Shown here piece by piece: positions 13,633-58,439 of a DNA stretch of 64,000 bases (position 1 is its first letter; each line of letters starts with the position of its first letter). The stretch is from the NCBI GenBank assembly GCA_031553315.1, contig JAVBLT010000007.1, forward strand, positions 104,576 through 168,575. The letters are read 5' to 3'. This DNA comes from Kiritimatiellia bacterium (GTDB lineage Bacteria; Verrucomicrobiota; Kiritimatiellia; RFP12; DVOR01). The position numbers and the translations under genes were made by a program. The notes under the pieces were generated by a model. The model did no database searches. It had not been told where the DNA came from and saw nothing but the letters and a program-made list of their open reading frames with translations.

Positions 13633-13656
13633 TGAATAGCGCCTTTGCATGAAAAT

Positions 13657-15612: not shown

Positions 15613-15615
15613 GGC

Positions 15616-37984: not shown

Positions 37985-40900
37985 ATGACACGAAACCGAA
38001 CAAAAAACCGGGCCTTGAGCCCGTTCGCATTGATTTTAACAGGGTGCCTTTCGCCTGTCTTCGCCGCCGACGCTCCCCTTGTGCTTGACAACGGCATCCC
38101 CGCCCACTCGAACTACACAGCGATCGATTCCGGCGCCGTCAACCGCGGAGCCGTCTCCGCCGCCGAAAACGTGTGGGTCAACTTCACCGGCGAAGGCGAG
38201 ATCAGCGGCGCCATCACAGCCGCCGACGCGGAGACCCGCTACCATGTGAAGCTGACGGCGGGCACGATGACCGGCAACGACGGCGCCACCTTTGCCGTGA
38301 ACAACGCCTGGCAGGCGCAGATCAGGCAACCCGTCACCGCCGCGTCGCTTTGGATTCACAACGGCCGCGTTCCCCTAAAATCGAAAACCGCCCTGGACAC
38401 TGTCGGCACCGTGTACGTGGCCGGCGGCCAGCTTTGGTTCGACGGCGACGGCGCCGACGCCGCCATCAACGCCATCGTCGTGGGAACCTCCAACTATTCC
38501 GGCGACAGCGCCAACAATTACAACAAAGCCGCCATCCGCATGGATGCCAACGCCTCCGTGACCGGCCTCACCTCCGTGATTTCCCCCGCCAGGTTTACAT
38601 TTTCCAACGGCAAGACCCTGACCCTCGCCTCGCTCGGCGGCAGCGGCGATTTGGAGCTTAAAAACTACACGCAGAGCAAAACGGGCGGGTTTCTCAAAAT
38701 CAACGCCAGTTCCGAATATACCGGCACAATCACCATTCAAAACAACGGCCTGGAATTCGGCGGCGCCGTAACCGGCCTCCCCCGGCTGATCATGGCGCAA
38801 GACCCGGCCATGCCCGAGAAAACCGTCACCCTCAAGCTCAACGCCCCCGCCACGCTGGCCCCCGGCACCGCCTTCAACTCCGGCATCATCGATCTCAGCG
38901 CCGCGCCGCTCTCCGACACCGCCGCCGCGATCACAATCCCCGACGCCACAGTGACCTTCGCGCACGGGCTCACGATCAACCTCGGCACAGGCCGCCCCGC
39001 CAACGCCACGTTTCGCGTGTTCGGCGTCGCCGACGGCGCCGATTACGCCGCCGCGTTCGAGAAGATCAACGTCACCCTCAACGGGCGCAGCGCCTTCATC
39101 AACCCCGCCGGCTACGTGACCGGATATCCCGACATCCGCTCCGCCAACAGCTTCGAGACCCAGGTCGTACACACCGGCCAGGATCTCTGGGTCAACGTTT
39201 CCGTGAACGGCGGCGCAATCAAGGCCGGCATCGACGCCGCCGGGCACAATCTGAAAATCACCAGCGGCACCCTCACGGGAACCCCGCCCGATCCCTCCAC
39301 GTATTCCCCCCAAAACGGGTCGACCAAACTGCTCAACGGCCCCATCTCCGCCGCCTCGCTTTCCATCGAAAGCGGCCGCCTCTCGCCCAACGCCACCGGC
39401 CTCCTCGCCAACGCCGGCACCGTTTACCTCAACGGCGGCCACATCTACCCCGCCGGAGGCGAAACCTTCGCCAACGATTTCGTCTTCAACACAGCGAGCT
39501 ACACCGAAGGCAACTCCTACGGCGGCTCTGTGTACCGCGTGGACTCCGCCACCGCCTTCAACGGCTCCGCCACCATCCGCACCGGCTCCGAGTTTTGCTT
39601 TGGCGGCAGCGGCATGCTGAGCTTCGCCAACCTGCGCGGAGCGGGCAACGTGATCCTTGATCTCTATGGCGGCACAGGTCATATCCTCACCGTCGACAAT
39701 ACCGACGACTACACCGGCACGATCCTGATGAACAACGCCCAGATCTCGCTCAAGCTTGCCGCCGGCCGCGCCGCCGCCCCCAGGTTCACCCTCACCGCCG
39801 GTTCCTTCATCCCTCAGATGCCCGTGACCCTGCGCGCGGGAACAGCCCTCACCTCCGGCACGGTCGATTTCAGCGGCGTGACGCTGAACGCCGCCACCCC
39901 CGCCATGACCATTCCCGCCGGAGCCGCCGTTTCAGTCGGAGCGGGCGTCGCCTTCCAAATGGGTGCGAACTATTCATTCCCCGTGACTCTGAAACTGTTT
40001 GAGGGCCCCGCTCCCGCCGGGTGGAATCCCCAGACCGCCACCGTGCTGATGGGAGCGGTGGCGCCCACGGCCCGCACCGTCAATGCCGACGGCTCCATCA
40101 CCTTCGACATCGAGCTCCAGCCCATCGCCTTCACCACCCCCTCCGCCGACTGGGAGGCCAAAACCTTCCCCGCGGGAACGCTTGAATCCATTGTCCCCGC
40201 CGGCGCATCCGTGGGCTTCGGCACGCAGCCGGCGTTTGTGCAGACGCTCGGCGGCAAAGCGTCGACCGTCGTCAACGTCACCGGCGGCGGCGATTCCGCG
40301 GCCAACATCTACGGGATGTACGGCCGCGCCACACCCCCCGCCGCCTTTGAAAGAGATGTGTGGCTCGCCGTGACCGGCGGCACCTTCCTGCGCGTGGTCG
40401 GCGGCGCTGAAAGCGAGTGGACGAGCAACGCCTCGGGCTCCATCACGGGCGATATCCTTGTGGAAATGCGCGGAACCTCCAAAGCCGGCGCCCTTATCGG
40501 CGGTTTTCAGGAAAGCGCCTTCGCCACCCGCTTCATCACCGGCAATATCGGCGTGGTGCTGGGCGAGGAGGCCCTCGTTTCCGGTTCCGTCATCGGGTTC
40601 GCGAACAGCGCCCACAGCCAGACCTCCACGCTGAACGGCAATACCGCCGTGCTCGTTAAAAACGTGCAGAGCGACACCAATTACGCCTCCGCCACCGCCC
40701 CCGCCAACACCGCCGCCGGCTGGATCGTCGGCGGAGGCATGTGGAGCACCGCCAATGCGGGCTCGGGCGCCGTCGTCAACGGCAACACGGCTGTGGCGGT
40801 CGATATTCCCGAAGGAAAAACCGGCATATTCCGCAAAGCGCTCGTGGGCGGCAGCCACTCGGTCAACCTCGGCGCCGCGCCCTTCACGGTCAGCGGCTCC

Positions 40901-42175
40901 ACCGGCGTCAGCATCACCGCGCCCGAAACCGTCCGCTTCCTGGATCCGGTCGTCGGCGGCGGTTACACCACCGGCAATGCACCGGCCACGGCCGGCTCTT
41001 CCAGCGTCACGCTCAACGGCGGAACCTTCCTCGCCGAAGTGGTCGCGGGCGGCAGCGGCGCCCAAGCCTCGGTCGCGGGCGACGCCGTGCTCAACGTCAA
41101 CGGCGGCGTGCTGGCCAATACCGTGCTCCGCGGCTCCTCCGCAGCCTCGACCGTCGGCGGCCTCAAACGCCTGCGCGTGAGCGGCGAGCGCGCCATTGAC
41201 CTCACCGGAACCACCGTGATCGATTTCAACGCCGTCGAAGCGACCGGCGGCGCCACGCTCACCCTCGGCCAGGCCACGCAGGTCGATGCCGCCACCGCCG
41301 CAAACGGCGGCAAGCTCGTCATCGCCGGCAAAACCTCCGCCCAAGCCCTTGACTCGGCGGCATTCCGCCACATCCGCCTCACGGTCGCCGACTGGCCCCG
41401 CTCCAACCCCAACGGCAACCTCGGCAACCATTCCAACACCGGTGTGGCCATCGGCGAATTCCGCCTGACCAGCGGCGGCGAACCCGTCTCCTGGGGCACA
41501 GGCGCCTCCATCGCCGGCATTCCCGCGGGAAGTGGAAACGAAGGCGTCGCCTCGATGATCGACGGCAACCCCAACACCAAGTTTTTCACCGCCCCGGGAA
41601 CCGAGCCCGCCTATCAGTTCACCGTAACGCGCGGAGCCGACGCCCCCGCATTCGACGGCTATCAGATTCTCGGATCCGATCAGGCCGGCCGCAGCCCGCG
41701 GGTCTGGACGCTTTCCGCCAGCGTCGACGGCGCCAGCTGGGTTGTTCTCGACCAGCAGGCGCTCACCTACGCTTCACTCGCCGGGTGGAACTACGGCGTG
41801 GTCAAATCCTTCACCTGCGCCCGCACCGGCGTGGCCTCCGCCATCGGCGCCGTCACCGTGGCCGAAGGCGGCACACTCACCGGCTCCGGGCGGCTGATCG
41901 GCAACCTCGCCTTCGAAGCCGGCTCCACCCTGCTCAAAACCTCGACCGACCCCGCCGAAGCGCCCTGGGTGGAAGGAACCGTCTCAGGCGGCGCGACCGT
42001 CGTCGGCCCCGATCTTGAGTTCACGTCCGCCACCCGGCAATATCTGCTGACCGGCCCCGGAGCCGTCGCCGCCGATGCCTCCGCATTCCAGGCGGCCGAA
42101 GGCCTCGTTGTCCGCAACGACGATACCGGCCTTTACCTGACCCGGCAATCCGGCATCATGATCATGCTCTTCTGA
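37985..42175 (+). CDS. large secreted surface protein: repeated beta-strand/autotransporter-associated-like repeats + C-terminal F5/8 type C (discoidin/CBM32-like) domain
   Basis: AT-rich promoter region 37874-37984, RBS gaggtg; signal peptide; two about 330-aa internal repeats; MIDGNPNTKFF…RVWTLSASVDGASW discoidin signature near the C-terminus; 1396 aa. Confidence 0.65.
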   Translation: MTRNRTKNRALSPFALILTGCLSPVFAADAPLVLDNGIPAHSNYTAIDSGAVNRGAVSAAENVWVNFTGEGEISGAITAADAETRYHVKLTAGTMTGNDGATFAVNNAWQAQIRQPVTAASLWIHNGRVPLKSKTALDTVGTVYVAGGQLWFDGDGADAAINAIVVGTSNYSGDSANNYNKAAIRMDANASVTGLTSVISPARFTFSNGKTLTLASLGGSGDLELKNYTQSKTGGFLKINASSEYTGTITIQNNGLEFGGAVTGLPRLIMAQDPAMPEKTVTLKLNAPATLAPGTAFNSGIIDLSAAPLSDTAAAITIPDATVTFAHGLTINLGTGRPANATFRVFGVADGADYAAAFEKINVTLNGRSAFINPAGYVTGYPDIRSANSFETQVVHTGQDLWVNVSVNGGAIKAGIDAAGHNLKITSGTLTGTPPDPSTYSPQNGSTKLLNGPISAASLSIESGRLSPNATGLLANAGTVYLNGGHIYPAGGETFANDFVFNTASYTEGNSYGGSVYRVDSATAFNGSATIRTGSEFCFGGSGMLSFANLRGAGNVILDLYGGTGHILTVDNTDDYTGTILMNNAQISLKLAAGRAAAPRFTLTAGSFIPQMPVTLRAGTALTSGTVDFSGVTLNAATPAMTIPAGAAVSVGAGVAFQMGANYSFPVTLKLFEGPAPAGWNPQTATVLMGAVAPTARTVNADGSITFDIELQPIAFTTPSADWEAKTFPAGTLESIVPAGASVGFGTQPAFVQTLGGKASTVVNVTGGGDSAANIYGMYGRATPPAAFERDVWLAVTGGTFLRVVGGAESEWTSNASGSITGDILVEMRGTSKAGALIGGFQESAFATRFITGNIGVVLGEEALVSGSVIGFANSAHSQTSTLNGNTAVLVKNVQSDTNYASATAPANTAAGWIVGGGMWSTANAGSGAVVNGNTAVAVDIPEGKTGIFRKALVGGSHSVNLGAAPFTVSGSTGVSITAPETVRFLDPVVGGGYTTGNAPATAGSSSVTLNGGTFLAEVVAGGSGAQASVAGDAVLNVNGGVLANTVLRGSSAASTVGGLKRLRVSGERAIDLTGTTVIDFNAVEATGGATLTLGQATQVDAATAANGGKLVIAGKTSAQALDSAAFRHIRLTVADWPRSNPNGNLGNHSNTGVAIGEFRLTSGGEPVSWGTGASIAGIPAGSGNEGVASMIDGNPNTKFFTAPGTEPAYQFTVTRGADAPAFDGYQILGSDQAGRSPRVWTLSASVDGASWVVLDQQALTYASLAGWNYGVVKSFTCARTGVASAIGAVTVAEGGTLTGSGRLIGNLAFEAGSTLLKTSTDPAEAPWVEGTVSGGATVVGPDLEFTSATRQYLLTGPGAVAADASAFQAAEGLVVRNDDTGLYLTRQSGIMIMLF

Positions 42176-42188
42176 TCGCCTTGATCAA

Positions 42189-42227
42189 ACAAACGCCGCC
42201 CCTTGCCGGGCGGCGTTTGTTTTTGTT
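42189..42227 (+). terminator. strong rho-independent terminator after the 1396-aa surface protein gene
   Basis: 13-bp perfect stem ACAAACGCCGCCC/GGGCGGCGTTTGT, 6-nt loop, followed by TTTTGTT. Confidence 0.75.
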
Positions 42228-42280
42228 GCGTTGACGAATCCCCGTTTTTCAGCTACTTTATCCCCGAAAGGAATTCTGGA

Positions 42281-44404
42281 ATGAAACACCGTTGGATCGT
42301 TGCATGGGGAGTGCTGTGCGCGGCTTTCGCGCAGGCCGGTACAATCAAAGTGGCGTGCATCGGCGACAGCATCACCTGGGGAACCGGTCTGGAAGACCGC
42401 GCCACCGAAAGCTATCCCGCCCGCCTTCAGGCCCTGCTCGGCAATGCCTATACCGTGCGCAACTTCGGCGCCCCCGGCCGCGGCGCCTACCGCGACAATG
42501 CCTACAGCGCCACCCCCGAACATGCCGCCGCCCTCGCCTGGCAGCCCGACATCGTGATCTCCAACCTCGGCATCAACGACGCCGAAGCCTACGACGCCTC
42601 CCCCCGCTTCGCCGCCGATTACTGCACCCTCCTGCAAACCTACGCCGGCCTTCCCTCCAAACCCAAGCTCTATCTCTGGACCAAGCTCGCCCCCCTCACC
42701 GAAAAACACCGCCTCTACCGCAGCCCCGCCCCCTTCCTCATGCAGCGCGATCTGGAAATCGTGGCCGACCGCATCGGCGCCGCCCGAATCGACATGCAAT
42801 ACCCCTTCGAGACCATCGCGCTCCAGACCATGCCCGACGGCATCCACCCCAACGCCAAAGGCATGGCCCGCATCGCCGAAATCACAGCCAAGGCGATGAC
42901 GCCCCCCGCCGCCCTCACCCTGCCCTACTATTTCGGCCACGCCATGGTCCTCCCCGCCGAGACCGCCTTCACCATCCGCGGAACCGCCAAACCCGGCGTC
43001 GCCGTCACCTGCGGCGCCCTTTCCGCAGTGGCCGACCGGCGCGGCGAGTGGAGCATGATCCACCCCGCCACCCCGCCCTCCGCCGAAGGCATCACCCTCG
43101 CCTTCAAAGCCGGAGACGAAACCCGCGAATTCTTCAACGTGCTCTTCGGCGACCTCTGGGTCTGCGCCGGCCAATCCAACATGGATTTCGCCGTGACCTC
43201 CAGCGCCAACGCCCGCGAAATCCGCGCCGCCGCGACCAACGCCAACCTCCGCGTGCTCCGCTGGGGCAGCCTGCTCCCCGTTTGGGGCGAAGGCTGGAAC
43301 GAAACCCAGCTTGAGCGCAGCAAAACCCCGGGCCTTTTCGGCGGCGCCTGGCGCGCGGTCGATTCCCCCGGCGCCGCCAGCGACCTTTCCGCGATCGGCG
43401 TGATGTTCGGCCAGGGCCTGCTCGCCGCCCGCCCCGGCATACCCGTCGGCATCATCCAGATTGCCGTGGGCGGCGCGCCGGTCGAAGCGTTTCTGCCCAA
43501 GTGGCGCATGGCCGCCCATGCGCCGCTGGTTCCGCTCGTCACCGCCCGCGGCCCCTGGTATCATACCGTCGGCTTCGTCCTCGAAGCGCACGCCGCCCAG
43601 GCCCGCAAAGCGTTCAAATACGCCCTCCCGCGCTACGACCTTTCCGAAATGATGCACCCCCTTGGCCCCGAAACGATTTGGCGCTGCGCCTTCGAGCCGC
43701 TCTTCTTCGCGCGGGGAAGCGGCGAGGCGTTCCCCGTGAAGGGCGTGGTCTGGTACCAGGGCGAATCCAACGCCGTGGCCCCCAAAAACACCCGCTACCC
43801 CGCCGACCCGGCCTACATGCGCGCGGGGATCGATTCTCTGATCGAGGCGCTGCGAAGCGAAAGCCGCAACGCGGATCTCCCCGTGATCATGGTGCAGCTG
43901 CCCAAGTTCAACCAGCCCTGGATGCTCTTCCGCGAGGCGCAAAGCCAGGCCGCGAAAGCCTTTCCCCGCACCGGCCTCGTGGTTTCCACCGACACGGGCG
44001 ATATGAAAGACATTCACCCGCGCGACAAGAAACCCATCGCCGACCGCTGCCTCGCCGAAGCCCTCCGCCTGGCCTACGGCAATGCCGGCGCCCCCGCCTT
44101 CACCTTCGCCGAAAGCGCCGCGCGCGAAGGAGATTCCGTGATCGTGACCTTCAGCGGCCCCGCGCTGGCTCAAACCGTTTCCCCCGCAGGCGTGGAACTC
44201 TCGGCCGACGGCGAAACCTTCCTCCCCGCGATGAGCGTGACCCGGCTCGATGATTCGCGGATGCGCGCGCAGGGAATCTCAGAGCCCGCCGCCATCCGTT
44301 ACAACTGGGCCCCCGATCCCCCCGGCCGGCTCCTCAACGCCGCCGGGCTGCCCATCGCCCCCTTTCGCTGGAATCAGGATCAGAACCGCGAGGGCGGCCA
44401 TTAA
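42281..44404 (+). CDS. two-domain carbohydrate esterase: N-terminal SGNH/GDSL hydrolase + C-terminal sialate-O-acetylesterase-like (SASA) domain
   Basis: Signal peptide; GDSL block VACIGDSITWGTG and DGIHPN; SASA hallmarks CAGQSNM and VWYQGESN; 707 aa; 3' end overlaps convergent LysE gene by about 125 nt. Confidence 0.7.
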   Translation: MKHRWIVAWGVLCAAFAQAGTIKVACIGDSITWGTGLEDRATESYPARLQALLGNAYTVRNFGAPGRGAYRDNAYSATPEHAAALAWQPDIVISNLGINDAEAYDASPRFAADYCTLLQTYAGLPSKPKLYLWTKLAPLTEKHRLYRSPAPFLMQRDLEIVADRIGAARIDMQYPFETIALQTMPDGIHPNAKGMARIAEITAKAMTPPAALTLPYYFGHAMVLPAETAFTIRGTAKPGVAVTCGALSAVADRRGEWSMIHPATPPSAEGITLAFKAGDETREFFNVLFGDLWVCAGQSNMDFAVTSSANAREIRAAATNANLRVLRWGSLLPVWGEGWNETQLERSKTPGLFGGAWRAVDSPGAASDLSAIGVMFGQGLLAARPGIPVGIIQIAVGGAPVEAFLPKWRMAAHAPLVPLVTARGPWYHTVGFVLEAHAAQARKAFKYALPRYDLSEMMHPLGPETIWRCAFEPLFFARGSGEAFPVKGVVWYQGESNAVAPKNTRYPADPAYMRAGIDSLIEALRSESRNADLPVIMVQLPKFNQPWMLFREAQSQAAKAFPRTGLVVSTDTGDMKDIHPRDKKPIADRCLAEALRLAYGNAGAPAFTFAESAAREGDSVIVTFSGPALAQTVSPAGVELSADGETFLPAMSVTRLDDSRMRAQGISEPAAIRYNWAPDPPGRLLNAAGLPIAPFRWNQDQNREGGH

Positions 44405-47459: not shown

Positions 47460-48317
47460 TTACCCCATCACCCGCATGAGGCGGGGCATCACATCGGTGA
47501 GGGATCGGGAGCCGCCGAGGATTTCTTCCGAGCGGGGGCCGAAGGCTACGAGCGGCACGGGGTTGCAGGTGTGGCCGCGGGTGGAGAGGTCTTCGATGTT
47601 GCCGTGGTCGCTGGTGAGGATGAAGAGCAGGTCGGCCTCGCGGGCGGCGGGCACGAGGCGGGTGAGGAAAGCGTCGAGCAGGCCGAGGATGCGGGAGGCC
47701 TGGTCGTGGTTTTGGGAGTGGCCGGCGAGGTCGGTGAGGAAATATTCGAAGAGGGTGAAATCGTTGCAGAGGGCGATGTCGATCAGCTGGGCCGCGGAGG
47801 TTTCGGGTGTGACGAGGGGGCCGGTGTAGCCTTTGCCGACGATGGCCTGGCGGGTGAGGTCGTGGAGCACGGCCTGGCCGGCGAGCATGTCGTTCTGAAA
47901 GCGGAGCACTTCGGGGCAGGTGAGCGACATCACGGTGGTGACGGATTTGAAGCGGCGGCTTTCGAGCTCTTCGGGGGCATCGCAGAAATACGCGTCGGCG
48001 AAGCAGGCGCGCAGGCCTTTGCGCTTGAGCGCCATGAAGATGTTGTCCTGCTGAAGCAGGCGGCAGAGCGTGGGGCCGGGGAAGCCTTCTTTGTGGCGGC
48101 CCATGTATTGCGCGGCGTTGACGCCGGTATAGAGGGTGGCCTGCCCCGTGGCGCTTTGCGGGAGACCGGGCACGCCCAGGCAGGCGTCGATGGCGATGCC
48201 TTGCCGGTGCATCAGGCTGAAAAGCGTGGGGCAAACGCGTTCATTCACGGGGTTCGCATCCGATTTCGGTGCAAAACCCACGCCGTCGACAAACACGTAG
48301 AGAACCTTCACTTTCAT
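47460..48317 (-). CDS. metalloenzyme-superfamily protein (alkaline-phosphatase/iPGM-like core)
   Basis: MKVKVLYVFVDGVGF metal-site start, TSDHGN motif near C-terminus; ATG at 48317 preferred over TTG at 48356. Confidence 0.55.
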   Translation of the reverse strand: MKVKVLYVFVDGVGFAPKSDANPVNERVCPTLFSLMHRQGIAIDACLGVPGLPQSATGQATLYTGVNAAQYMGRHKEGFPGPTLCRLLQQDNIFMALKRKGLRACFADAYFCDAPEELESRRFKSVTTVMSLTCPEVLRFQNDMLAGQAVLHDLTRQAIVGKGYTGPLVTPETSAAQLIDIALCNDFTLFEYFLTDLAGHSQNHDQASRILGLLDAFLTRLVPAAREADLLFILTSDHGNIEDLSTRGHTCNPVPLVAFGPRSEEILGGSRSLTDVMPRLMRVMG

Positions 48318-48353
48318 GTTATCGTTGTAACCCAAATGCCTTCGGAGTGCAAG

Positions 48354-48393
48354 CAAAAAGAAAGCGGGGCAAGCGCTTTTGCATCTGCCCCGC
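48354..48393 (-). terminator. intrinsic terminator (minus strand) downstream of PEP-CTERM gene 1
   Basis: 8-bp stem GCGGGGCA/TGCCCCGC with 14-nt loop; on minus strand followed by TTTCTTTTTG. Confidence 0.5.
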
Positions 48394-48429
48394 CTGGATC
48401 CTTCCTCATTTTCACTAAAAGCGGCGGGG

Positions 48430-48801
48430 TCAGCCCCTCCGCCGCCTCAAGGCAGCCAAGGCGAAGCCAAGCAGGCCGAGCATTGCCGAGGCGGGCTCGG
48501 GGACGGCGCCGGGATCGGGGATGTCGTCGTCGGGCGGGGGGCCGATCCAGGTGCCGTCGTCATCGGAGTCGTCTTCGGAAAAGGTGCGGAAGGAGGTCGA
48601 AGGGGAAACGGGCAGGAGCAGAGGGCGCGGCGAACGGGCTCCCAGCGAGGCGGCGAGCGCGTGGTCGGGTTGCAGAAGAAGGGCTGCCGGCGCGCTGTGG
48701 GAGATTGCGCCGGCGGGCTCAGGCGCGGCAAGCGCCACGGCGTGCGCGGAACTTGGGCCAATGAGGAAAACCCCGGCGACGAGCGTGTAAAACGGCTTCA
48801 T
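48430..48801 (-). CDS. small secreted PEP-CTERM sorting-domain protein
   Basis: Signal peptide MKPFYTLVAGVFLIGPSSAHA; acidic DDSDDDG stretch; C-terminal VPEPASAMLGLLGFALAALRRRRG (PEP motif + TM + basic tail). Confidence 0.7.
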   Translation of the reverse strand: MKPFYTLVAGVFLIGPSSAHAVALAAPEPAGAISHSAPAALLLQPDHALAASLGARSPRPLLLPVSPSTSFRTFSEDDSDDDGTWIGPPPDDDIPDPGAVPEPASAMLGLLGFALAALRRRRG

Positions 48802-48964
48802 GAAAAGCTCCTGTTTTTGGCGTGGTACAGAATCTGGAGAAGGAGGCGGAATTTTTCATAAAGGGAAAGAAGAGTCAATTAAAAAAAGTGTTTTTTTGAA
48901 ATTTCGCCATATCAATGATGAAGTTAGGTCTTTTTGTTATTATTTTTTAACAAACTCAGGGCAT

Positions 48965-49002
48965 AAAAAAATCGGTTCGGGCGCCTAAGCGCCCGAACCG
49001 AT
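48965..49002 (-). terminator. strong rho-independent terminator (minus strand) after PEP-CTERM gene 2
   Basis: Perfect 14-bp stem ATCGGTTCGGGCGC/GCGCCCGAACCGAT, 4-nt loop CTAA; A6 on plus strand = U6 tract after hairpin on minus strand. Confidence 0.8.
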
Positions 49003-49023
49003 TCTGTCAACGGGGAGAAGGAA

Positions 49024-49584
49024 TCAGAACCCCTGGCGGCGGCGTAGCGCCACAAGCGCGAAGCCGAGCATTCCAAGCAGGGCGGAGGCGGGCTCGGGAA
49101 CAACGGTGTTTTCCGTTTTCATCCATCCGGAGGAAAACCAGTTGCCCGCGGAGCCTTCCCACATGGCGCCGTTGCCTTGCTGCGATGACGTGATGTAGGA
49201 ATTTGAGGCGATGTATTCGGCGTCGTCCGCCGTCAGGAAGACAACGCTCGTTCTGAGGGTATCTAAAACAATTTTGATTTCGGGATCCGGCTCCACTTTC
49301 GTCGCCACAATCATCATGGGAGACCACATTCCTTCGCCGCGAGTGGCGACCGTGATGGCGCTATCCAGAGCCTGGCGGGTTATTTTCCCGTCGGAATCGC
49401 CGAAGGCGGAGTCGAACGTGACGAGCTTGATGCTCTGGATGTCGTTGATGTTGACGCCGCTGGGGAGGGCCGAGGCATAGAGCATGACCATGACCGAGTC
49501 GACACTGAGTACGACAGCCTGCGCAGAGGCGCAAAGAAGAAACGCAACATAAAATGTCAACTGTTTCATCATACGTTTTATCAT
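49024..49584 (-). CDS. secreted PEP-CTERM sorting-domain protein (lower GC, about 50%)
   Basis: ATG at 49584 with RBS gaaagg; signal peptide MKQLTFYVAFLLCASAQA; C-terminal VVPEPASALLGMLGFALVALRRRQGF. Confidence 0.7.
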   Translation of the reverse strand: MIKRMMKQLTFYVAFLLCASAQAVVLSVDSVMVMLYASALPSGVNINDIQSIKLVTFDSAFGDSDGKITRQALDSAITVATRGEGMWSPMMIVATKVEPDPEIKIVLDTLRTSVVFLTADDAEYIASNSYITSSQQGNGAMWEGSAGNWFSSGWMKTENTVVPEPASALLGMLGFALVALRRRQGF

Positions 49585-49860
49585 CCTTTCTTCGTTCGTT
49601 TTTTCAGAAATGAACGCAACCTCATTTCCGCGAACGCGTGTTTTCATGCCGATTTTAAGCCGTAAAGGTAAACACATAACAAACAATCCGGCTTTTTTCT
49701 GTGGCTTGAAAACGAGGCGTATTATAGAAAAAAGGTGTCTGATTTGTCAACCGCATTTCGGTGATTTTTTCTTTTTACTGGTTTTCTCCCGCCGGTTATG
49801 CCATACTGCCTCACAGTGGCGATTGAGATTAGGTTGAAAATTTCACTGCACGAGGGTTTC

Positions 49861-51858
49861 ATGATGCGGAAACACAACAGTTTATTTTTCAAGGGGGCGT
49901 TGCTTGGCGCGCTCTTCCTCATGCCTGCCTTCGCGCGCGCTCAGGATAAACCCACAGAGATTACCTTCCGAAATGAGCAGCCGGCGAAGCTCGACTCGAA
50001 GGGCCGGAAAATCGAAACGATCGAGACTGACCGTAAAATCACGCTCGGTGAAGACGGCCTGCTCTCCTCCAAAGAGTATCGCGAGAAGCTCGCCGAGGAT
50101 GAACGCCTGCGCAAGCTGGCCAAGGAGTGCGGCGAGTGGTTCGAGCGGGTGCAGCTTTTAGACGCGAAAAAGCCCGGCGGCATGCTGGCCTACATCGAGG
50201 CGATGCGCATCTTCAAGGTGAGCGACGCGGTGAGGCGCGAAGAGGGCCGGGCGGCCTCGCAGCTCAAGGCCTCGCTCGACGAAATGCTGCGCCGGCGCGG
50301 CGGCGAGATCATGGTCGGCCCCGGGCACGGCGTCTCCATCGACGACCCGATGGAGCTGCTCCTGCTGCGCTATCAGAGCAACCTGGCGCAAAGCACGCCC
50401 GTGAAGGAGCTCAAGCCCGCGAAATCGGCCGACTTGTGGCCGGGCCCCGTGGCGAAAGAGGCGCAGCGCGTCACCAAAAAAGTTTACCTCAACTCGGCCG
50501 TGGGCGGTTGGCTCAGCACAGGGCTCTATGCGCCTCCCGGCGAAGTGATCCGCATCAGGGCGCTGACGCTGGGCGGGGGCGACAACCTGCGCGTGCAGAT
50601 CGGCTGCCATTCCGACAAGCTCGACCCGCAGATCATGGCGCTCAAGGAGGGCGGCGGCGTGGATAAAGAGGCGCCCATCAACCTCATGGCCGTGAAGATG
50701 GGCTGGCAGGAGATCACCGACAACCGCTCCCTCTGGCGCTGGCCCGATTGCGTGCGCTCGTTTAAAATCACCAAACGCAAGGCCGAGGTGGGCTTCGCCC
50801 TGGGCGGCATGCTTTATTTTCAGTATAGCGCGGGCAAGAGCGGCAAGATCATGGAGGTGGAGGTTTCGGGGTGCGTGGAAGCGCCGCGCTTCCGCCTGGG
50901 AATCGACACCAACGACGATTGGAACACCCGCCTCAGCAAGCTCCCCGCCCCCTGGGGCGAGCTGGAAACCAAAAACGTGATTCTCACCTTCCCCTCCAAT
51001 GCCGCCCGCAACGTGACCAACATGCTGGAGGTCGCCCAGTGGTGGGGCAAAGCCACCGCCATGCAATACCGCCTCTCCGGGCGCAAGCTCGCGACCGACT
51101 TCGGCAAAGACCACCTGCCCCGCCCCGAACGCCTGGTCGACGACACCCAGATCTCCATCGGCGCCGGCCACTCCGGCTACCCCATCATGCACATGGGCTG
51201 GAGCGGCGGCATGCTGAACCTGCGTTCGCTCAAAGCCGCCGGCAACTGGGGCTCCATGCACGAAATCGGGCACAACATGGGCCAAGGCGCCAACGGCGTC
51301 TACACCATTCCGGGCAACATCGAAGTCATCTGCAACTTCTACGGCACCTTCGTCATGAACAAGCTCAACGGCACCTCCCTGCGCCGCATCCACGCCGAAT
51401 CCTGGAAAAACGTCGCCGCAAAAATCAACGGCTCCGCCTACGGCTGGGCCCAGGCGCAAGTCTTCGAGCGCCTCGTCTTCTACATGACCCTGGCCGATTA
51501 TTTCGGCTGGGATCCCTTCCTCGAAGCCGTGAACGACACCGACAAAATCCCCAAAGAGTGCGACCAGCCCGTCGACCCCCTCCTCGTGCGCCTCTCCAAA
51601 TCGACCGGGCGCGACCTCACCCCTTATTTCGACATGTGGAAGCTGCGCTACTCCAAAGGCGCCGCCCGCTTCACCTCCAAATTCCCCCCATGGCCCGTTG
51701 AAGAAGAAAAAGCCAAACTCTTCGAAGACGACCCCTACGCCCACCTCGACGGCGAATCCTCCGAAGTCCGCGCCCCCTCCGACCCGTGCGACGTGAAGAC
51801 CAAACGCCAGCTCCGCAACTCCGGCAGCATGAACGCCCACACCGATCTCAATCACTAA
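49861..51858 (+). CDS. secreted zinc metallopeptidase, M60-like (enhancin-like) gluzincin
   Basis: Signal peptide; N-terminal coiled-coil; HEIGHN zinc motif with downstream Glu (…GNIE) about 20 aa later; 665 aa; RBS cgaggg. Confidence 0.55.
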   Translation: MMRKHNSLFFKGALLGALFLMPAFARAQDKPTEITFRNEQPAKLDSKGRKIETIETDRKITLGEDGLLSSKEYREKLAEDERLRKLAKECGEWFERVQLLDAKKPGGMLAYIEAMRIFKVSDAVRREEGRAASQLKASLDEMLRRRGGEIMVGPGHGVSIDDPMELLLLRYQSNLAQSTPVKELKPAKSADLWPGPVAKEAQRVTKKVYLNSAVGGWLSTGLYAPPGEVIRIRALTLGGGDNLRVQIGCHSDKLDPQIMALKEGGGVDKEAPINLMAVKMGWQEITDNRSLWRWPDCVRSFKITKRKAEVGFALGGMLYFQYSAGKSGKIMEVEVSGCVEAPRFRLGIDTNDDWNTRLSKLPAPWGELETKNVILTFPSNAARNVTNMLEVAQWWGKATAMQYRLSGRKLATDFGKDHLPRPERLVDDTQISIGAGHSGYPIMHMGWSGGMLNLRSLKAAGNWGSMHEIGHNMGQGANGVYTIPGNIEVICNFYGTFVMNKLNGTSLRRIHAESWKNVAAKINGSAYGWAQAQVFERLVFYMTLADYFGWDPFLEAVNDTDKIPKECDQPVDPLLVRLSKSTGRDLTPYFDMWKLRYSKGAARFTSKFPPWPVEEEKAKLFEDDPYAHLDGESSEVRAPSDPCDVKTKRQLRNSGSMNAHTDLNH

Positions 51859-51867
51859 GGAAACATC

Positions 51868-54800
51868 ATGAACCGCCACACCCTCCTCGCCGCCCTCACC
51901 CTCGCCGGCGCCGCCCTCACTGCGGCCGAGCCCGGAAGAGCAATCAGAATGATTCCCCAAAGCGGCATCTCCAAAACCTTTAAAATCGTCACCGATACCG
52001 ACATCGAGCTGAGCGTGCAATTCTTCCGGGCCGACGTGTTCCGCATCCTCGCCGCGCCCGGCGGCCACTATGCCGACCCCAAAAACAACCCCGAAAAAGC
52101 CCAGATCCTCGCCGACGCAACCGAAGACGCCTCCCGCGTGACCTTCGCCGACACCCCCGAGCACGCCACCTTCACCACCACCGCCCTCACCCTCACCCTC
52201 GACAAAGCCACCTGCCGCTTCACCCTCCTGCGCCCCGACGGCACCCCCATCTGGCAAGAGCTCGCCCCCCTCAACCTCACCTCCAACCTCACCACCCAGA
52301 CCCTCTCCTCAGCCCCCGCCGAATACTACTACGGCGGCGGCCAGCAAAACGGCCACTTCTCCCACAAAGGCACCCGAATCGACATCCGCGCCGACGGCAA
52401 ATGGGATGAAGGCGGCCACCCCAACCCCGCCCCCTTCTACATGAGCAACGCCGGCTACGGCACCCTCCGCCACACCTTCTCCCCCGGCGCCTACGACTTC
52501 ACCGACAATTCCCGCATCACCCTCCAACACAACGAAAACCGCTTCGACGCCCTCTACTTCGTGGCCCCCACCTTCAACCGCATCATCGACCTCTACACCC
52601 AGTTTACCGGCCGCCCCAATTTCCTCCCCATCTGGGGGCTCGAGCTCGGCGACGCCGACGCGTATATGACCCGCGACAAAGAAACCAAAGCCCCCAAACA
52701 GCGCGACGACGGCACCTACGTGGAAATCACCCCCGACGCCATCCCCGTGGCCCAATCCTACCGTGAACACGACATGCCCGGCGGCTGGATCCTCGTGAAC
52801 GACGGCTACGGCTGCGGCCACCTCCAGCTCCCCTACACCGTCAAAGCCCTCGCCTCCCTCGGCTTCCACACCGGCCTCTGGACCGAAGGCGCCCTCGACC
52901 TCACCGCCTGGGAAGTCGGCACCGCCGGCACCCGCGTCCAAAAGCTCGACGTGGCCTGGACCGGCCCCGCCTACCAGCACGCCCTCGAATGCAACCGCAT
53001 CGCCCACACCTCCCTCGAAACCAACTCCGACAGCCGGGGCTTCGTCTGGACCGTCCAGGGCTGGGCCGGCACCCAGCGCTACGGCATCTGCTGGACCGGC
53101 GACCAATACGGATCCTGGGACCTCATCCGCTACCACATCCCCACCCTCACCGGATCCGGCCTCTCCGGCCAGGCCTACGCCACAACCGACGTCGACGGCA
53201 TCTTCGGCGGCTCCCCCGAAACCTACACCCGCGACCTCCAGTGGAAATGCTTCACTCCCGCCCTCTACGTGATGAACGGCTGGAGCAACCTCAACAAATC
53301 ACCCTGGGCCTACCCCGAACCCTACCGCAGCATCAACCGCGATTACCTCAAGCTCAAGATGCGCCTCACCCCCCTCCTCTACACCTACTGCCGCCAGGCC
53401 TACGACACCGGCGCACCCATCGTCCGCCCCCTCCTCTGGAACTACCCCCAAGACCCCAAAACCTGGGACAACACCACCCAATACCAATTCATGCTCGGCA
53501 GCGAGCTCCTCATCGCCCCCGTCTACACCAGCATGAAAGTCAACCGAGGCTGGCGCAAAAACATCTACCTCCCCCAAGGCGCCTGGGTCGATTATCACGA
53601 CGGCCGCCTTACCACCGGCCCCGCCACCCTCGAAGCCTACCCCGTCACCCTCGAAAAGCTCCCCGTCTTCGTCCGCGCCGGCGCCATCATCCCCATGTAC
53701 CCCGAAATGCTCTACAACAACCAGCGCCCCAAAGACCCCCTCACCTTCGACGTCTACCCCCACGGCCGCACCGCCTTCACCCTGTATGAAGACGACGGCC
53801 TCACCCGCGCCTACAAAACCGGCGCCTACACCACCCAGACCATCACCTGCGCCGCCCCTGAAGACGGCCTCCCCGGCGACATCCTCATCACCCTCGCCCC
53901 CCCCTCCGGCGACTACCAGGGCAAGCCCCACACCCGCGCCTACACCTTCCAGATCCACACCCGCGCCGCCCCCCGCCACATCATGCTCGGCGACCAGGAG
54001 CTCCTGCGCCTGACCGCCACCAACAACCTCCAGACCGCCTACGACAACGCCCTCCAAACCTGGTACCACGACCCCGCCGACCGCCACGGCATCCTCCACA
54101 TCAAGCTCGCCCCCCGCCCCACCGGCCAGCCCCTCACCCTTCACATCGCCCACAACCCCGCCGCCGAAATCGCACCCACACCGCCCTACCCCGTCCCTGA
54201 AATCACCCACGAGCTCGACAAAACCGAATTCACCCTCACCTGCGATTCCGAGCAAGGCGGCTCCGGCATCAACAACGCCTTCGACGGTTCCCCCGAAACC
54301 ATCTGGCACTCCAACTACGGCAAAAAAGACCCCGAACACACCCACCCCTACACCATCACCATCGACCTCGGCCGCCTCGCCGCCGTCAACGGCCTCGGCT
54401 ACCTTCCCCGCCAGAACTTCGGCAACGGCTCCATCAAAGGCTACGAAATCTACCTCAGCCGCCACCCCGGCACATTCGGCGCCCCCGTTGCCAAAGGCGA
54501 ATTTCAAAGAGAATACCTCGACCCCGCCGCCGAAAAGAAAGAACCCAAATACCAGACCGTCGGCTTTACCCCCACCTGGGCCCGCCACATGCAAATCAAA
54601 GTGCTCAGCTCCCTCGGAGGCGACCGCTTCGGCTCCGCAGCCGAGTTCGACATCCTCCAAGACCTCGACCAGCCCCCCCTCCCCGATGAAAACCTGTATC
54701 TGGCCGACCTCAAACCCCTCCGCGCCACCGGCCCCTACGCCAACGACAAAGGCCTCAAAGCACCCGCCATCCGCGTCGACGACACCCCCTGGGCCCGCGG

Positions 54801-55110
54801 CACCACCGTCCGGGCCGGCACCGAGCTCACCTACCCCCTCGACGGCACCTACGACCGCCTCATGGGCCATGTCGGCATGGAAGACGCGCAGGGCGACGGC
54901 GGCCTCGTCACCTTCCGCGTCTTCGCCGACGACCAGATGATCTTCGAACGCCTCGGCATGTACGGCGCCCAAGTCAAACAACTTCTCGACGTAAACATCC
55001 CCCCCGCCGCCAAAGAACTCCGCCTCACCCTCACCCCCGAGCCCGGCGGCTCCCCCGCCGACACCGGCGTGTGGGTCGATACCCGCCTCGTGCGCAAAGG
55101 CAGTGAATAG
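51868..55110 (+). CDS. glycoside hydrolase family 31 with C-terminal F5/8 type C (CBM32-like) and NPCBM domains
   Basis: 9-nt gap after peptidase gene; GH31 catalytic blocks GWILVNDGYG and YGICWTGDQYGSWD; CBM32 block NNAFDGSPETIWHSNY…GYEIYLS; NPCBM block LYLADLKPL…VTFRVFADD; 1080 aa. Confidence 0.8.
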   Translation: MNRHTLLAALTLAGAALTAAEPGRAIRMIPQSGISKTFKIVTDTDIELSVQFFRADVFRILAAPGGHYADPKNNPEKAQILADATEDASRVTFADTPEHATFTTTALTLTLDKATCRFTLLRPDGTPIWQELAPLNLTSNLTTQTLSSAPAEYYYGGGQQNGHFSHKGTRIDIRADGKWDEGGHPNPAPFYMSNAGYGTLRHTFSPGAYDFTDNSRITLQHNENRFDALYFVAPTFNRIIDLYTQFTGRPNFLPIWGLELGDADAYMTRDKETKAPKQRDDGTYVEITPDAIPVAQSYREHDMPGGWILVNDGYGCGHLQLPYTVKALASLGFHTGLWTEGALDLTAWEVGTAGTRVQKLDVAWTGPAYQHALECNRIAHTSLETNSDSRGFVWTVQGWAGTQRYGICWTGDQYGSWDLIRYHIPTLTGSGLSGQAYATTDVDGIFGGSPETYTRDLQWKCFTPALYVMNGWSNLNKSPWAYPEPYRSINRDYLKLKMRLTPLLYTYCRQAYDTGAPIVRPLLWNYPQDPKTWDNTTQYQFMLGSELLIAPVYTSMKVNRGWRKNIYLPQGAWVDYHDGRLTTGPATLEAYPVTLEKLPVFVRAGAIIPMYPEMLYNNQRPKDPLTFDVYPHGRTAFTLYEDDGLTRAYKTGAYTTQTITCAAPEDGLPGDILITLAPPSGDYQGKPHTRAYTFQIHTRAAPRHIMLGDQELLRLTATNNLQTAYDNALQTWYHDPADRHGILHIKLAPRPTGQPLTLHIAHNPAAEIAPTPPYPVPEITHELDKTEFTLTCDSEQGGSGINNAFDGSPETIWHSNYGKKDPEHTHPYTITIDLGRLAAVNGLGYLPRQNFGNGSIKGYEIYLSRHPGTFGAPVAKGEFQREYLDPAAEKKEPKYQTVGFTPTWARHMQIKVLSSLGGDRFGSAAEFDILQDLDQPPLPDENLYLADLKPLRATGPYANDKGLKAPAIRVDDTPWARGTTVRAGTELTYPLDGTYDRLMGHVGMEDAQGDGGLVTFRVFADDQMIFERLGMYGAQVKQLLDVNIPPAAKELRLTLTPEPGGSPADTGVWVDTRLVRKGSE

Positions 55111-55125
55111 ACCGACCCCCTTGAA

Positions 55126-55554
55126 ATGACACAAGCCGTTTTAGCGCTCGGCTCCAACATGGGCGACCGCGCCCGGTGGCTCCGCTTTGCCCGGCGGGAA
55201 ATCGCCGCCCTGCCCGAAACCCGCCTGCTGAAAACCGCCAGTGATTACGACACCGCCCCGGTCGGCGTGCCTGAAGCCTTTCAAGGCCGGCGCTTCCTCA
55301 ACAGCGCCGTCCTCATCGAAACCGCGCTTTCCCCCCACGCCCTTCTCGCGGCCTGCCATGAAATCGAGCGCAACGCGGGCCGCGTCCGCACCATCCCAAA
55401 CGGCCCTCGCCCGCTCGATATCGACATCATCCTCTACGGCGATCTCCGCCTCGCCGCCCCCGAGCTCACCCTGCCGCACCCCCGCGCCCGCGAGCGTGAA
55501 TTCGTTTTGGCGCCCTTGCGCGAACTCTTCCCCGAAGGCCTCCCTCCGCTCTGA
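55126..55554 (+). CDS. folK: 2-amino-4-hydroxy-6-hydroxymethyldihydropteridine pyrophosphokinase
   Basis: LALGSNMGDR N-terminus, PRPLDIDIILYGD, LPHPRAREREFVLAPL motifs; 142 aa. Confidence 0.85.
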   Translation: MTQAVLALGSNMGDRARWLRFARREIAALPETRLLKTASDYDTAPVGVPEAFQGRRFLNSAVLIETALSPHALLAACHEIERNAGRVRTIPNGPRPLDIDIILYGDLRLAAPELTLPHPRAREREFVLAPLRELFPEGLPPL

Positions 55555-55558
55555 AATG

Positions 55559-55600
55559 AAAAAACCCGATCCGGGCCGAGTTGAGTCGGCCTGAATCGGG
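55559..55600 (-). terminator. intrinsic terminator for minus-strand cysE-metXW transcript (between convergent folK and cysE)
   Basis: Nested dyad CCCGAT…GGCCGA-gttgag-TCGGCC…ATCGGG followed on the minus strand by U6 (plus-strand A6 at 55559-55564). Confidence 0.55.
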
Positions 55601-55615
55601 TTGAATCGAAAAAAT

Positions 55616-56524
55616 CTACGCCTTGCCGTTTTTGATGACCGGCGCGGGATCCTGGTTGTAGACCTTGCTGCCGGGAGGCACCGAGTGAATGAGCCAGACG
55701 TTGCCCCCGATCACCGAATCGCGGCCGATGGTGGTATCGCCGCCCAGAATCGTGGCGCCGGCGTAGATGACCACATGGTCTTCCACATTCGGGTGGCGCT
55801 TGATGTCTTTCACGAGGCGGCCCTTCTCGTCTTTCGCGAAGCTGAGCGCGCCGAGGGTGACGCCCTGGTAGAGCTTCACCCGGCGGCCGATCGAGCAGGT
55901 CTCGCCGATCACCACCCCGGTGCCGTGGTCGATGAAAAAGCCCGGACCGATGGTCGCGCCGGGGTGGATGTCGATCCCCGTGCGGGAATGGGCGTGTTCG
56001 CTCATCACGCGGGGGAGGAGGTGCACGCCGTGGCGGTAGAGCTCGTGGGCGATGCGGTGCACGGCCACCGCGTAGAGCCCGGGGTACGACATCACGATTT
56101 CCATCGTGGAGTGCGCCGCGGGGTCGCCTTCATACGCGGCCTCGATGTCTTCCCCCAGCATCCGCTTGATTTCGGGAAAGGCCGCGAGCAGGCAGGCGAC
56201 CACGTTTTCCGCGCGGTCTGTGCAGGCCGCGCAGGTGGCGCAGGTGCCGGTCGAGCAGGTGTAAGCGTCGACCCGCGCGATCTGATCTGTCAGGCGCTCG
56301 GCGATGGAGGTGATTTCGCGCTCGAAATAGTCCGCGTCGGGGGTGACGGGGCCATGGCCGAGGCAGCCGGGAAAAAGCACCCCCAGCATGGCCTCAAGCA
56401 CCTCCACCACGGCTTCCCGCCCGGGCAGGTTCACCTCGCGGGCGGTGTTGACGCCGGAACAGTTGCGGCAGGGAGAAAATGCGGCTGAAAGCTGACGGAT
56501 CTGTTCGGCGATGCGCTCATTCAT
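55616..56524 (-). CDS. cysE: serine O-acetyltransferase
   Basis: SATase N-terminal helical domain + hexapeptide-repeat region ([28 protein letters not shown]); 302 aa. Confidence 0.85.
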
Positions 56525-58439
56525 GCGGTGAACCGTTTCCTTTTTTTTCCTGTGTGAGGCGAATCAACACCCGGTCGGCGCCGAGGTTGCGGTGGCAGAA
56601 GAAGATCAGAAAGCGCCCGATGCGGCTCGCGGAATGCGTCGCCACGATTTTGGCCTTGATCCCGGCCGTTTTGCAGGCAATGAGAAAATCATCGAGCGTG
56701 CAGAGGTGAATGTTGGGCGTGTCGTACCACTCATACGGGAGCGCCTTCGCCTTGGGCATGCGCCCCTTGAAAAGCAGATACAGCCGAACCGGCAGATAAC
56801 CGAAATTGGGAAACGAGACCACCGCCTCCCTGCCCACGCGCAACAGCTGCTCCAGCACGCGGTCGGGGCGTTTCACCACCTGAATGGTGTAGCTGAGCAC
56901 GGCGGTATCGAACGAATCATCGGGGATGATGCTCAGCTCGTCTTCCATATCCTCCATGATCACATCGAGCCCCGCGTGCAGGCTCAGGAGCACCTGGTCG
57001 AGGCGGATCTCAACGCCGATGCACGAAGCCTGCTTCATGATCGCCAGGCGTTTGAGCAGAGCGCCGTCGCCGCAGCCCAAATCGAGCACGCGGGCGCCCT
57101 GAGGCACAAGGTTGAGGAAATCGCGGTAAAAGGGATGGGAATCGCGGGAAACGGGGATCTCGTCTTCCATCTTCAGCGCCGTGAGAAAGGCGCGGATGAC
57201 CTGCTTGAGCTCCGTGATGTGGGTGAGAAACGCGTCGTGCCCCGCCGGCGCGTCGAGGTGGCAATAAGAAACATGCCTGCGCTGGCGCAGCAGCGCGCTC
57301 ACCATCGTCTGCGCCTGATCGGGCGTGAACAGCCAATCGCCGCTGAGCGACACAATCAGAATGCGCGCCTTGACCTTCGCGAACGCATCTTCCAGCGAGC
57401 CGTAGCGCTCGCCGAGGTCAAATGAATCCATCGCCCGCGTAATCTGCAAATAGGAATTGGCGTCGAAGCGCTGCACGAACTTCTCGCCTTGATATTCGAG
57501 ATAACTCTCGATTTGGAAATAGGTTTTGAAGTCTCGCCTGGCCCTGTCGTGATAGTCGCTTTCATCGTTCATCCAATCGGGGCGCTTCACGCGGCCAAAC
57601 TTATCCTCCATCATCTCCTGCGAAAGATAGGTGATGTGCGCCAGCTTGCGCGCGCTCGCCAACCCCTGGTTCGGTTTCAGCGGCGAGGAATAATAATCGC
57701 CCTGCTGCCAGTTGGGATCCTGCACAATCGCATGGCGGCCCACAATGTCAAACGCCAGCGCCTGCGTATTGAGGCTCGCCGCCGACGCCACCACCACGCA
57801 GTGATCCATATCGTCGGGATACTGCACCGCCCACTCCAGCACCTGCATTCCCCCGAAGCTGCCGCCCACCACCGCCGCCAGGCGCCTGAAACCCAGCTGC
57901 CGAACCAGCATCCGGTGCACCGTCACAATATCGCCCACCGTCGTTTCCGGAAAGGCCGAGCCGTAGTGCCGCCCCGTGGCCGGATTGATCGAAGCCGGCC
58001 CCGTGGTGCCCTTGCACCCGCCCAGGATATTCGCGCAAATCACATAATAGCGATCCGTGTCGATCCCCTTGCCCGGGCCGATCATCCCCTCCCACCAGCC
58101 CGAAGGCTTTTCGGAAGCCACGTTTTCCCCCGGCCTGAACCCCGCCACATGCGCATCTCCCGTGAGCGCATGGCAGACAAAGACCACATTGTCCTGCTTC
58201 TCATTCAGCGCTCCAAACGCCTCGTAGCGGACAATCACCTCCCGCAGCGCCCCGCCCTTTTCCAGCGGGAACCCCCCGGCCGGAAGCTCCAGCCGCAAAT
58301 CATGCGGTTCCACCACCCCCACAGGGTGGCGCGAAGGCTGCCGTTTATGCTCAAAATCAGTAGTCATCAGGCAAATATTCCCGCGGTTGGCTTCAATGCA
58401 ATGGAAATTCATCAGCTCGACGGTGTAGTTTACGGACAA
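56517..58439 (-). CDS. metX: fused homoserine O-acetyltransferase (MetX) + MetW methyltransferase-like domain
   Basis: MetX alpha/beta-hydrolase nucleophile elbow VVGGSFGG and N-terminal [11 protein letters not shown]; C-terminal SAM-MT-like block [12 protein letters not shown]; 640 aa; true start probably one of the internal Met (aa 10 or 25). Confidence 0.8.

Follow-up and report, generated by a model that had tools for sequence, protein, structure and literature searches.

A probably co-transcribed M60-like peptidase and GH31 glycosidase with predicted action on mucin-type O-glycoproteins in a Kiritimatiellia bacterium

The closest described precedents for the gene pair that we analyse here come from Bacteroides thetaiotaomicron and Akkermansia. 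In the former, the characterised polysaccharide utilization locus (PUL) BT4240-50 contains an M60-like peptidase adjoining a glycoside hydrolase (GH) family 109 alpha-N-acetylgalactosaminidase (alpha-GalNAcase) (PMC11992087). In the latter, a member of the Planctomycetes-Verrucomicrobia-Chlamydiae (PVC) bacteria, Amuc_1008 is a characterised GH31_18 alpha-GalNAcase that carries extra C-terminal modules, including a family 32 carbohydrate-binding module (CBM32), and that acts on peptide-linked core N-acetylgalactosamine (GalNAc) (PMC11790493). Subfamily GH31_18 has, so far, comprised alpha-GalNAcases only (PMC13096917), and the GalNAc-recognition residues are conserved according to the Akkermansia supplement. 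Structures have also been solved for AM0627, an M60-like enzyme of Akkermansia muciniphila (7sci, 7yx8). Here we consider a 64,000-nucleotide (nt) stretch from a Kiritimatiellia bacterium (contig JAVBLT010000007.1 of assembly GCA_031553315.1; ‘the window’), in which the gene for an M60-like peptidase is followed, after 9 nt, by that for a GH31 enzyme. We think it probable that these two genes, likely transcribed together and paired in this lineage only, specify Sec-exported enzymes that work one after the other on glycoproteins of the mucin (O-GalNAc) type. The best reading is that one secreted enzyme cuts O-glycoproteins and the other takes off their core GalNAc, because the glycosidase lies close to a solved alpha-GalNAcase, because its homologues occur in a GalNAc context, and because the fold of the peptidase matches M60 structures only.

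The window pair has the same order of gene types as the Bacteroides locus (BT4244, M60-like, beside BT4243, the alpha-GalNAcase), and it would follow a similar logic: the backbone of the O-glycopeptide is cut and the core GalNAc is then taken off (PMC11992087). The two differ in several respects: BT4243 belongs to GH109 and the window glycosidase to GH31 (BT3169, the GH31 GalNAcase of B. thetaiotaomicron, is encoded elsewhere); BT4240-50, a PUL of the SusC/D kind, also encodes a GalNAc kinase, a GH2 enzyme and a transporter, whereas the window pair is a bare two-gene unit without transporter, kinase or regulator; and the lipoprotein BT4244 itself bears BACON and CBM32 domains, whereas the window CBMs reside on the glycosidase and not on the peptidase. 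A preliminary description of this locus had proposed that such a pairing was uncharacterised in high-GC PVC bacteria. That holds insofar as our literature searches (M60-like with GH31 and operon; Kiritimatiellota with mucin) returned no report of an M60-GH31 pair, but Amuc_1008 and AM0627 are known from Akkermansia, and the characterised M60-like/GH109 pair of B. thetaiotaomicron (PMC11992087) makes the novelty a narrow one.

The features of the glycosidase are as follows:

51868..55110, plus strand: GH31 glycoside hydrolase of 1080 amino acids (aa), predicted alpha-N-acetylgalactosaminidase, GH31_18-like (Pfam; match to EfGH31)
52009..52497, plus strand: N-terminal beta-sandwich, Gal_mutarotas_2, aa 48-210 (PF13802, 53 bits; aligns with EfGH31 residues 48-292)
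52615..53385, plus strand: catalytic (beta/alpha)8 domain, about aa 250-506 (PF01055)
52948-52950, plus strand: predicted nucleophile D361 in KLDVAW, aligned with the residue that is mutated in 7f7r (D455N)
53101-53103, plus strand: predicted acid/base D412 in WTGDQ, aligned with EfGH31 D508 (numbering offset +21)
53410..53961, plus strand: proximal and distal C-terminal beta-sandwiches (PF21365 GH31_3rd, aa 515-608, 82 bits; PF17137 DUF5110, aa 624-698, 66 bits)
54238..54648, plus strand: CBM32, F5_F8_type_C, aa 791-927 (PF00754, 55 bits)
54694..55089, plus strand: NPCBM/NEW2, CBM51-type, aa 943-1074 (PF08305, 68 bits)

Each of these Pfam domains exceeds its gathering cut-off, and a Sec (SPI-type) signal peptide, a feature common to Amuc_1008 and EfGH31, is predicted at aa 1-~20. 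Among solved structures, by which we judged the closeness of this enzyme to alpha-GalNAcases, its best relative is EfGH31 (Nag31; 6m76, 7f7q, 7f7r) from Enterococcus faecalis: the alignment with 6m76 (E 5e-113, 382 bits) extends over aa 36-719 at about 37% identity and takes in all of the domains (N-terminal, catalytic and C-terminal) that make up the GH31 core of both enzymes. The next solved GH31, the Flavobacterium dextranase FjDex31A, scores 181 bits (E 2e-52), and no solved alpha-glucosidase or alpha-xylosidase exceeds 143 bits. Both catalytic aspartates of EfGH31 are kept in the window enzyme, as are the KxDVAW and WTGDQ motifs, and D361 and D412 are invariant among 18 homologues (alignment A2). 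Furthermore, the four top fold matches of an AlphaFold2 (AF2) model of the window GH31 are four EfGH31 entries. The two enzymes part company outside the core: EfGH31 is LPXTG-anchored and is devoid of CBM32 and NPCBM, whereas the window enzyme bears both; extra C-terminal modules that include a CBM32 are, on the other hand, a property it has in common with Amuc_1008.

The nearest solved relatives of the window CBM32 are galactose oxidase (2e-19), the Micromonospora viridifaciens sialidase, and the CBM32 modules of Clostridium perfringens GH89 (4a41/4aax, 7e-12) and GH31 (4lks, 3e-10), all of which bind galactose (Gal)/GalNAc; by sequence, the window module would be of this type too. The NPCBM module weakly resembles CBM51 of C. 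perfringens (2vmg/2vmh; E 2e-3). Separately, we noted that a further M60 peptidase (P0190) carries an N-terminal NPCBM/CBM51 that is 30-39% identical to the NPCBM of this GH31 family; one binding module is therefore common to both enzyme classes.

Homologues of the glycosidase are widespread. It shares 58% identity along its entire length with an Akkermansiaceae protein that has the same architecture, and we found a PVC-wide family (2706 matches at E <= 1e-20) whose hosts include Phycisphaerae, Kiritimatiellia, Rubritalea and Anaerohalosphaera. Independent evidence comes from our survey of 80 GH31-anchored loci (59 of them reach 2.5 kb or more upstream): genes of GalNAc catabolism lie near the GH31 homologue in 42 of the 80, all from metagenomes; the homologues concerned have the same architecture, are 40-49% identical to the window enzyme and are nearly all full-length. 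The neighbours are a ROK kinase (39/80 loci), an AgaS-like SIS isomerase (38/80), a GatZ/KbaZ aldolase subunit (36/80), a TonB-dependent receptor (33/80) and a GH109 alpha-GalNAcase (32/80). The GalNAc-utilisation clusters fall within L091-L140 (for example L105:6174-9678 and 13284-16361, and L134:6186-7628), on contigs that are of very high GC content and are probably proteobacterial.

These data bear on whether the GH31 enzyme might hydrolyse some other alpha-glycoside (of Gal, glucose or xylose) and not alpha-GalNAc, which we consider very improbable. Its homologues are publicly named ‘alpha-glucosidase’ or ‘alpha-xylosidase’, and the NCBIfam models of those names do match the window protein weakly; however, the matches are far below threshold (95-132 bits versus cut-offs of 553-800) and cover just the C-terminal half of the barrel, which is shared. 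The match to EfGH31, in contrast, spans all of the core domains and scores twice as high as that to any other GH31; the CBMs, judged by their nearest relatives, belong to the Gal/GalNAc type, and the homologues co-localise with genes of the Aga pathway and with GH109. The preliminary description had placed this enzyme with the alpha-GalNAcases, and we concur: neither an alpha-glucosidase/alpha-xylosidase assignment nor a plant-polysaccharide type of CBM profile emerged, since the CBM32 is most like those that bind Gal/GalNAc. The glycosidase would thus be a further alpha-GalNAcase of the GH31_18 type.

The partner gene encodes a peptidase with the following features:

49861..51858, plus strand: M60-like zinc metallopeptidase, 665 aa (Pfam Peptidase_M60, 178 bits; M60-like_N, 60 bits)
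50458..50682, plus strand: M60-like_N beta-sandwich, aa 200-274 (PF17291, 60 bits)
50869..51642, plus strand: M60 catalytic domain, aa 337-594 (PF13402)
51259..51324, plus strand: zinc-binding gluzincin motif H467-E468-I-G-H471...E488 (alignment A1)

Public annotations differ on where this protein starts: NCBI gives 686 aa (ATG 49798) and Logan 665 aa (49861). We prefer the start at 49861 because only the 665-aa form has a canonical signal peptide and matches the N-termini of homologues, and because a GAGGG Shine-Dalgarno-like motif lies just 5' of ATG 49861. The predicted Sec signal peptide occupies aa 1-~27, MMRKHNSLFFKGALLGALFLMPAFARA, and has no lipobox Cys. The match to Peptidase_M60 (PF13402) is far above its cut-off of 25.8 bits and covers the whole profile (1-275). 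Residues H467, E468, H471 and E488 are invariant among 24 homologues (alignment A1), and the motif aligns with HEVGH...E of E. coli SslE, which is the nearest characterised relative by sequence, and with that of the Bacillus anthracis structure 4fca.

We also compared an AF2 model of the peptidase (mean confidence score, pLDDT, 80) with the PDB by Foldseek: all 24 matches at E <= 1e-3 are M60-like structures, namely the O-glycopeptidases IMPa, AM0627, ZmpA/B/C and BT4244, together with one uncharacterised B. anthracis protein (4fca/5ev7). Several of these O-glycopeptidase structures were solved with O-glycopeptides, and every structural neighbour of known function is an O-glycopeptidase. The M60 fold, the M60-like_N domain and the HExxH...E motif are common to the window protein and to IMPa, ZmpA/B/C, AM0627, BT4244 and SslE; compared with these characterised enzymes, the window peptidase has no appended CBM, is only 14-18% identical, and is set apart by a helical N-terminal stretch of some 170 residues and by a K-T-[KR]-R-Q-L-R tail. 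It is a divergent M60-like protein. The earlier proposal of a secreted HEIGH peptidase of the M60-like type is borne out by the profile score, the signal peptide and the exclusively M60 fold matches; indeed, every domain that had been proposed for the pair (Peptidase_M60, GH31, F5_F8_type_C and NPCBM) was found by Pfam, and the proposed 1080-aa GH31 with discoidin and NPCBM modules, 9 nt after the M60 gene, agrees with our coordinates.

The peptidase belongs to a small clade: about 56 clusters share 47-56% identity with it, and one of them is named Kiritimatiellia M60 peptidase. Clade members come from Kiritimatiellae, Lentisphaeraceae and Spyradenecus metagenome-assembled genomes (MAGs), and close relatives derive from animal-gut MAGs (e.g., roe deer cecum and yak rectum). 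Specific to this clade is the N-terminal region, which spans about 170 residues and is largely helical. We also observed a conserved, predicted helical C-terminal motif, NPED-x-KTRRQLR, in clade members (window copy, SDPCDVKTKRQLR, at ~51775-51815, aa ~640-652); a role in sorting or anchoring is possible. The window protein does not have two insertions that are present in every close homologue aligned (~750 aa each): an acidic, Gly-rich stretch of ~30 aa in the N-terminal region (A1 columns ~245-305), and one of ~85-110 aa directly before the DDTQIS..HSGYP motif (A1 columns ~690-815). Distant M60s likewise are without both insertions, and the window protein may therefore be an early-branching or a secondarily trimmed member of its clade.

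The two genes, together with folK, make up a close-packed run on the plus strand (M60-GH31-folK) that is bounded by a divergent, AT-rich intergenic region at its 5' end and by a convergent gene at its 3' end:

49687..49860, no strand: AT-rich divergent intergenic region (GC 0.56 in 48001-50000 versus ~0.65 elsewhere)
51859..51867, plus strand: 9-nt spacer between M60 and GH31, TAAGGAAACATCATG, read directly
55126..55554, plus strand: folK (HPPK; TIGR01498, 128 bits, above cut-off)
55563..55582, no strand: terminator-like stem-loop of 7 pairs between the convergent folK and cysE-like genes
55616-56524, minus strand: cysE-like gene with Hexapep and SATase_N domains

An AAGGAA ribosome-binding (Shine-Dalgarno) motif overlaps the M60 stop codon, and we found no terminator-like hairpin between M60, GH31 and folK. 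We infer that M60 and GH31 are transcribed together because the spacer is of only 9 nt, the Shine-Dalgarno motif is well placed and no terminator intervenes. The promoter of the unit is presumably within 49687..49860, although a scan of this region gave no convincing match on the plus strand; its sole strong sigma-70 match (49750-49721) points the other way, along the minus strand, and serves a gene for a small PEP-CTERM protein (49024-49750, minus strand) that is divergent from M60, and before which this match forms a perfect consensus, TTGACA-18 nt-TATAAT. The start of folK is 15 nt from the stop of GH31 (the preliminary description had given 16 nt), so by position it would be on the same transcript, probably as a passenger without a functional part in the pair, and the hairpin at 55563..55582 is the likely end of the transcription unit. 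We also considered whether the pair was acquired by horizontal transfer; this has no support, as the GC content of both genes (0.63-0.66) is near that of the rest of the window.

Bearing in mind this arrangement, we propose that both proteins would be exported via Sec, to the periplasm or to the cell surface. There, the M60-like gluzincin would cut the peptide backbone next to O-glycosylated Ser/Thr. The CBM32 and CBM51 modules would bind Gal/GalNAc and so keep the GH31 enzyme on its substrate; this enzyme, of the retaining GH31_18 type with D361 as nucleophile and D412 as acid/base, would then take the core alpha-GalNAc off trimmed glycopeptides, the core GalNAc-alpha-Ser/Thr linkage being hydrolysed by the double displacement of a retaining GH31.

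Several of our results weigh against this reading, foremost those that concern gene context in relatives. Within the available flanks of 82 M60-anchored loci (80 of them from a genome scan; in 38 of those 80, either flank is 4 kb or longer), none contains an alpha-GalNAcase-like GH31; conversely, an M60 domain is present in none of the 80 GH31-anchored loci (apparent M60 matches there were between the NPCBM of P0190 and the NPCBM of the GH31 itself, and were dropped). As the adjacency is absent from all of these related loci, evolution gives functional coupling no support; because it is not conserved, only the spacing in a single genome underlies the word ‘operon’. The earlier suggestion of one operon is thus in keeping with the 9-nt spacing and with the lack of a terminator, but not with these two counts: among the loci compared, the M60-GH31 adjacency looks specific to this genome and is not a conserved unit. 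In addition, we found no GalNAc-catabolism genes in the window, the peptidase is just 14-18% identical to the characterised O-glycopeptidases, and in the GH31 model, which was built from an 18-sequence alignment, pLDDT is below 50 for aa 337-477, in the catalytic core. To these we add the conserved surroundings of the M60 relatives, which are described below and hint at a role apart from GH31.

It is possible, though we consider it doubtful, that genome rearrangement made neighbours of two genes that are not functionally coupled: a dispersed GH31 alpha-GalNAcase, and an M60 peptidase that keeps a role from its ancestral exbB-exbD-tonB context. CAZyme genes are often dispersed in PVC genomes. 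Besides the count of adjacency (0/162 related loci), this explanation is favoured by the presence of other conserved synteny around the M60 clade in at least five genomes, by the occurrence of the unrelated gene folK directly after the window GH31, and by an orthologue of that GH31 (P0114, 53% identical) which is placed, as in the window, among housekeeping genes near nusA: nusA-infB-rbfA-truB-ribF are upstream of it and purA is downstream. P0114 is a few kb from nusA-infB, and the window GH31 is ~6 kb from nusA; the two genomes are distant relatives, because their NusA proteins are only 62% identical. The most parsimonious history would have the M60 gene relocate, in this lineage alone, to a position ahead of a GH31 that was already resident. 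The proximity of folK, which had been called an odd functional mixture, is unremarkable in this light, since GH31 ordinarily lies among housekeeping genes in such genomes. Arguing for more than an accident of rearrangement are the shared transcription that the spacer, the Shine-Dalgarno motif and the missing terminator imply; the low chance (~1/1000, by our own estimate for a genome of several thousand genes) that two specific genes become adjacent; the prediction that both activities are directed at the same class of substrate; and the cooperation of the analogous M60-like and GH109 pair in B. thetaiotaomicron (PMC11992087).

The conserved surroundings of the M60 clade are instructive in their own right. 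At six loci of close M60 relatives (L002-L007; hosts are Kiritimatiellae, Lentisphaeraceae and Spyradenecus MAGs), we observed a common order, with the genes present wherever the fetched DNA reaches: a CxxCxxCC protein, exbB, exbD-like, tonB-like, M60, radical SAM and comEC. At L002 (7770-15102), the M60 start overlaps the tonB-like stop. The exbD-like protein (177 aa) has a single transmembrane helix, and the tonB-like protein (210 aa) has a transmembrane helix and a Pro-rich linker; family searches with these two neighbours gave no match. The window contains none of these neighbours. This arrangement suggests that coupling to a TonB system is the rule for this M60 subfamily. We also weighed the idea that it is a distinct subfamily, confined to Kiritimatiellia/Lentisphaerae and marked by the helical N-terminal region and the KT[KR]RQLR tail, for TonB-energised harvesting of glycopeptides, which has here been re-wired onto GH31 as a minimal two-enzyme module that finishes off O-glycoproteins. 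We hold this to be unlikely; were it so, the ancestral M60 may have been translationally coupled to the tonB-like gene in an exbB-exbD-tonB operon, as a device unlike the Sus systems of Bacteroides.

Quite unlikely, in our estimation, is that the Kiritimatiellia/Lentisphaerae M60 clade serves TonB-dependent uptake or the processing of envelope proteins, in place of the degradation of host mucin; its targets may then be the cell's own or environmental O-glycosylated proteins, PEP-CTERM proteins for example. The preserved exbB, exbD-like, tonB-like, M60 order with its overlap of stop and start is in line with such a role, as are the PEP-CTERM gene divergently upstream in the window, the low identity to characterised O-glycopeptidases, and the fact that marine and other environmental PVC bacteria (such as Rubritalea and Anaerohalosphaera) often have GH31 homologues too. 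However, the structural neighbours of known function are all O-glycopeptidases, and linkage to TonB is equally compatible with the import of glycopeptides after cleavage at the surface, as in the Sus-like systems of Bacteroides (PMC11992087); an endogenous substrate is, moreover, without direct evidence. We therefore retain sequential action on mucin-type glycoproteins as the preferred reading of the pair.

Elsewhere in the window, a 1396-aa protein (37985-44404, plus strand) with no Pfam, NCBIfam or PDB sequence match is directly followed by a two-domain esterase with GDSL lipase and SASA sialate O-acetylesterase-like domains; both may be additional genes for glycan processing, located ~5 kb 5' of the pair. 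A 640-aa open reading frame (ORF; 56517-58439, minus strand) is a fusion of MetX (homoserine O-acetyltransferase) to MetW. An 836-aa ORF (15616-18126, minus strand) combines SBP_bac_1 solute-binding and BPD_transp_1 ABC permease domains, and it adjoins a second permease (13657-15612) and a 1477-aa surface protein of the DUF5123/choice-of-anchor Q type (18232-22665).

Each of the two window enzymes is an unexceptional representative of a known mucin-degrading family; what is unusual is solely that their genes lie side by side, which they do not in the related loci. No new mechanism is implied: both families, and the logic of pairing them, are experimentally established in Akkermansia and Bacteroides. 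If our preferred reading is true, the pair would be a compact and easily cloned set of peptidase and glycosidase for stripping mucin-type O-glycoproteins, and its source would be a lineage of gut-associated PVC bacteria that has been little studied. Of the loose ends, the one of greatest interest is the M60 subfamily specific to this clade, with its conserved exbB-exbD-tonB coupling in relatives.

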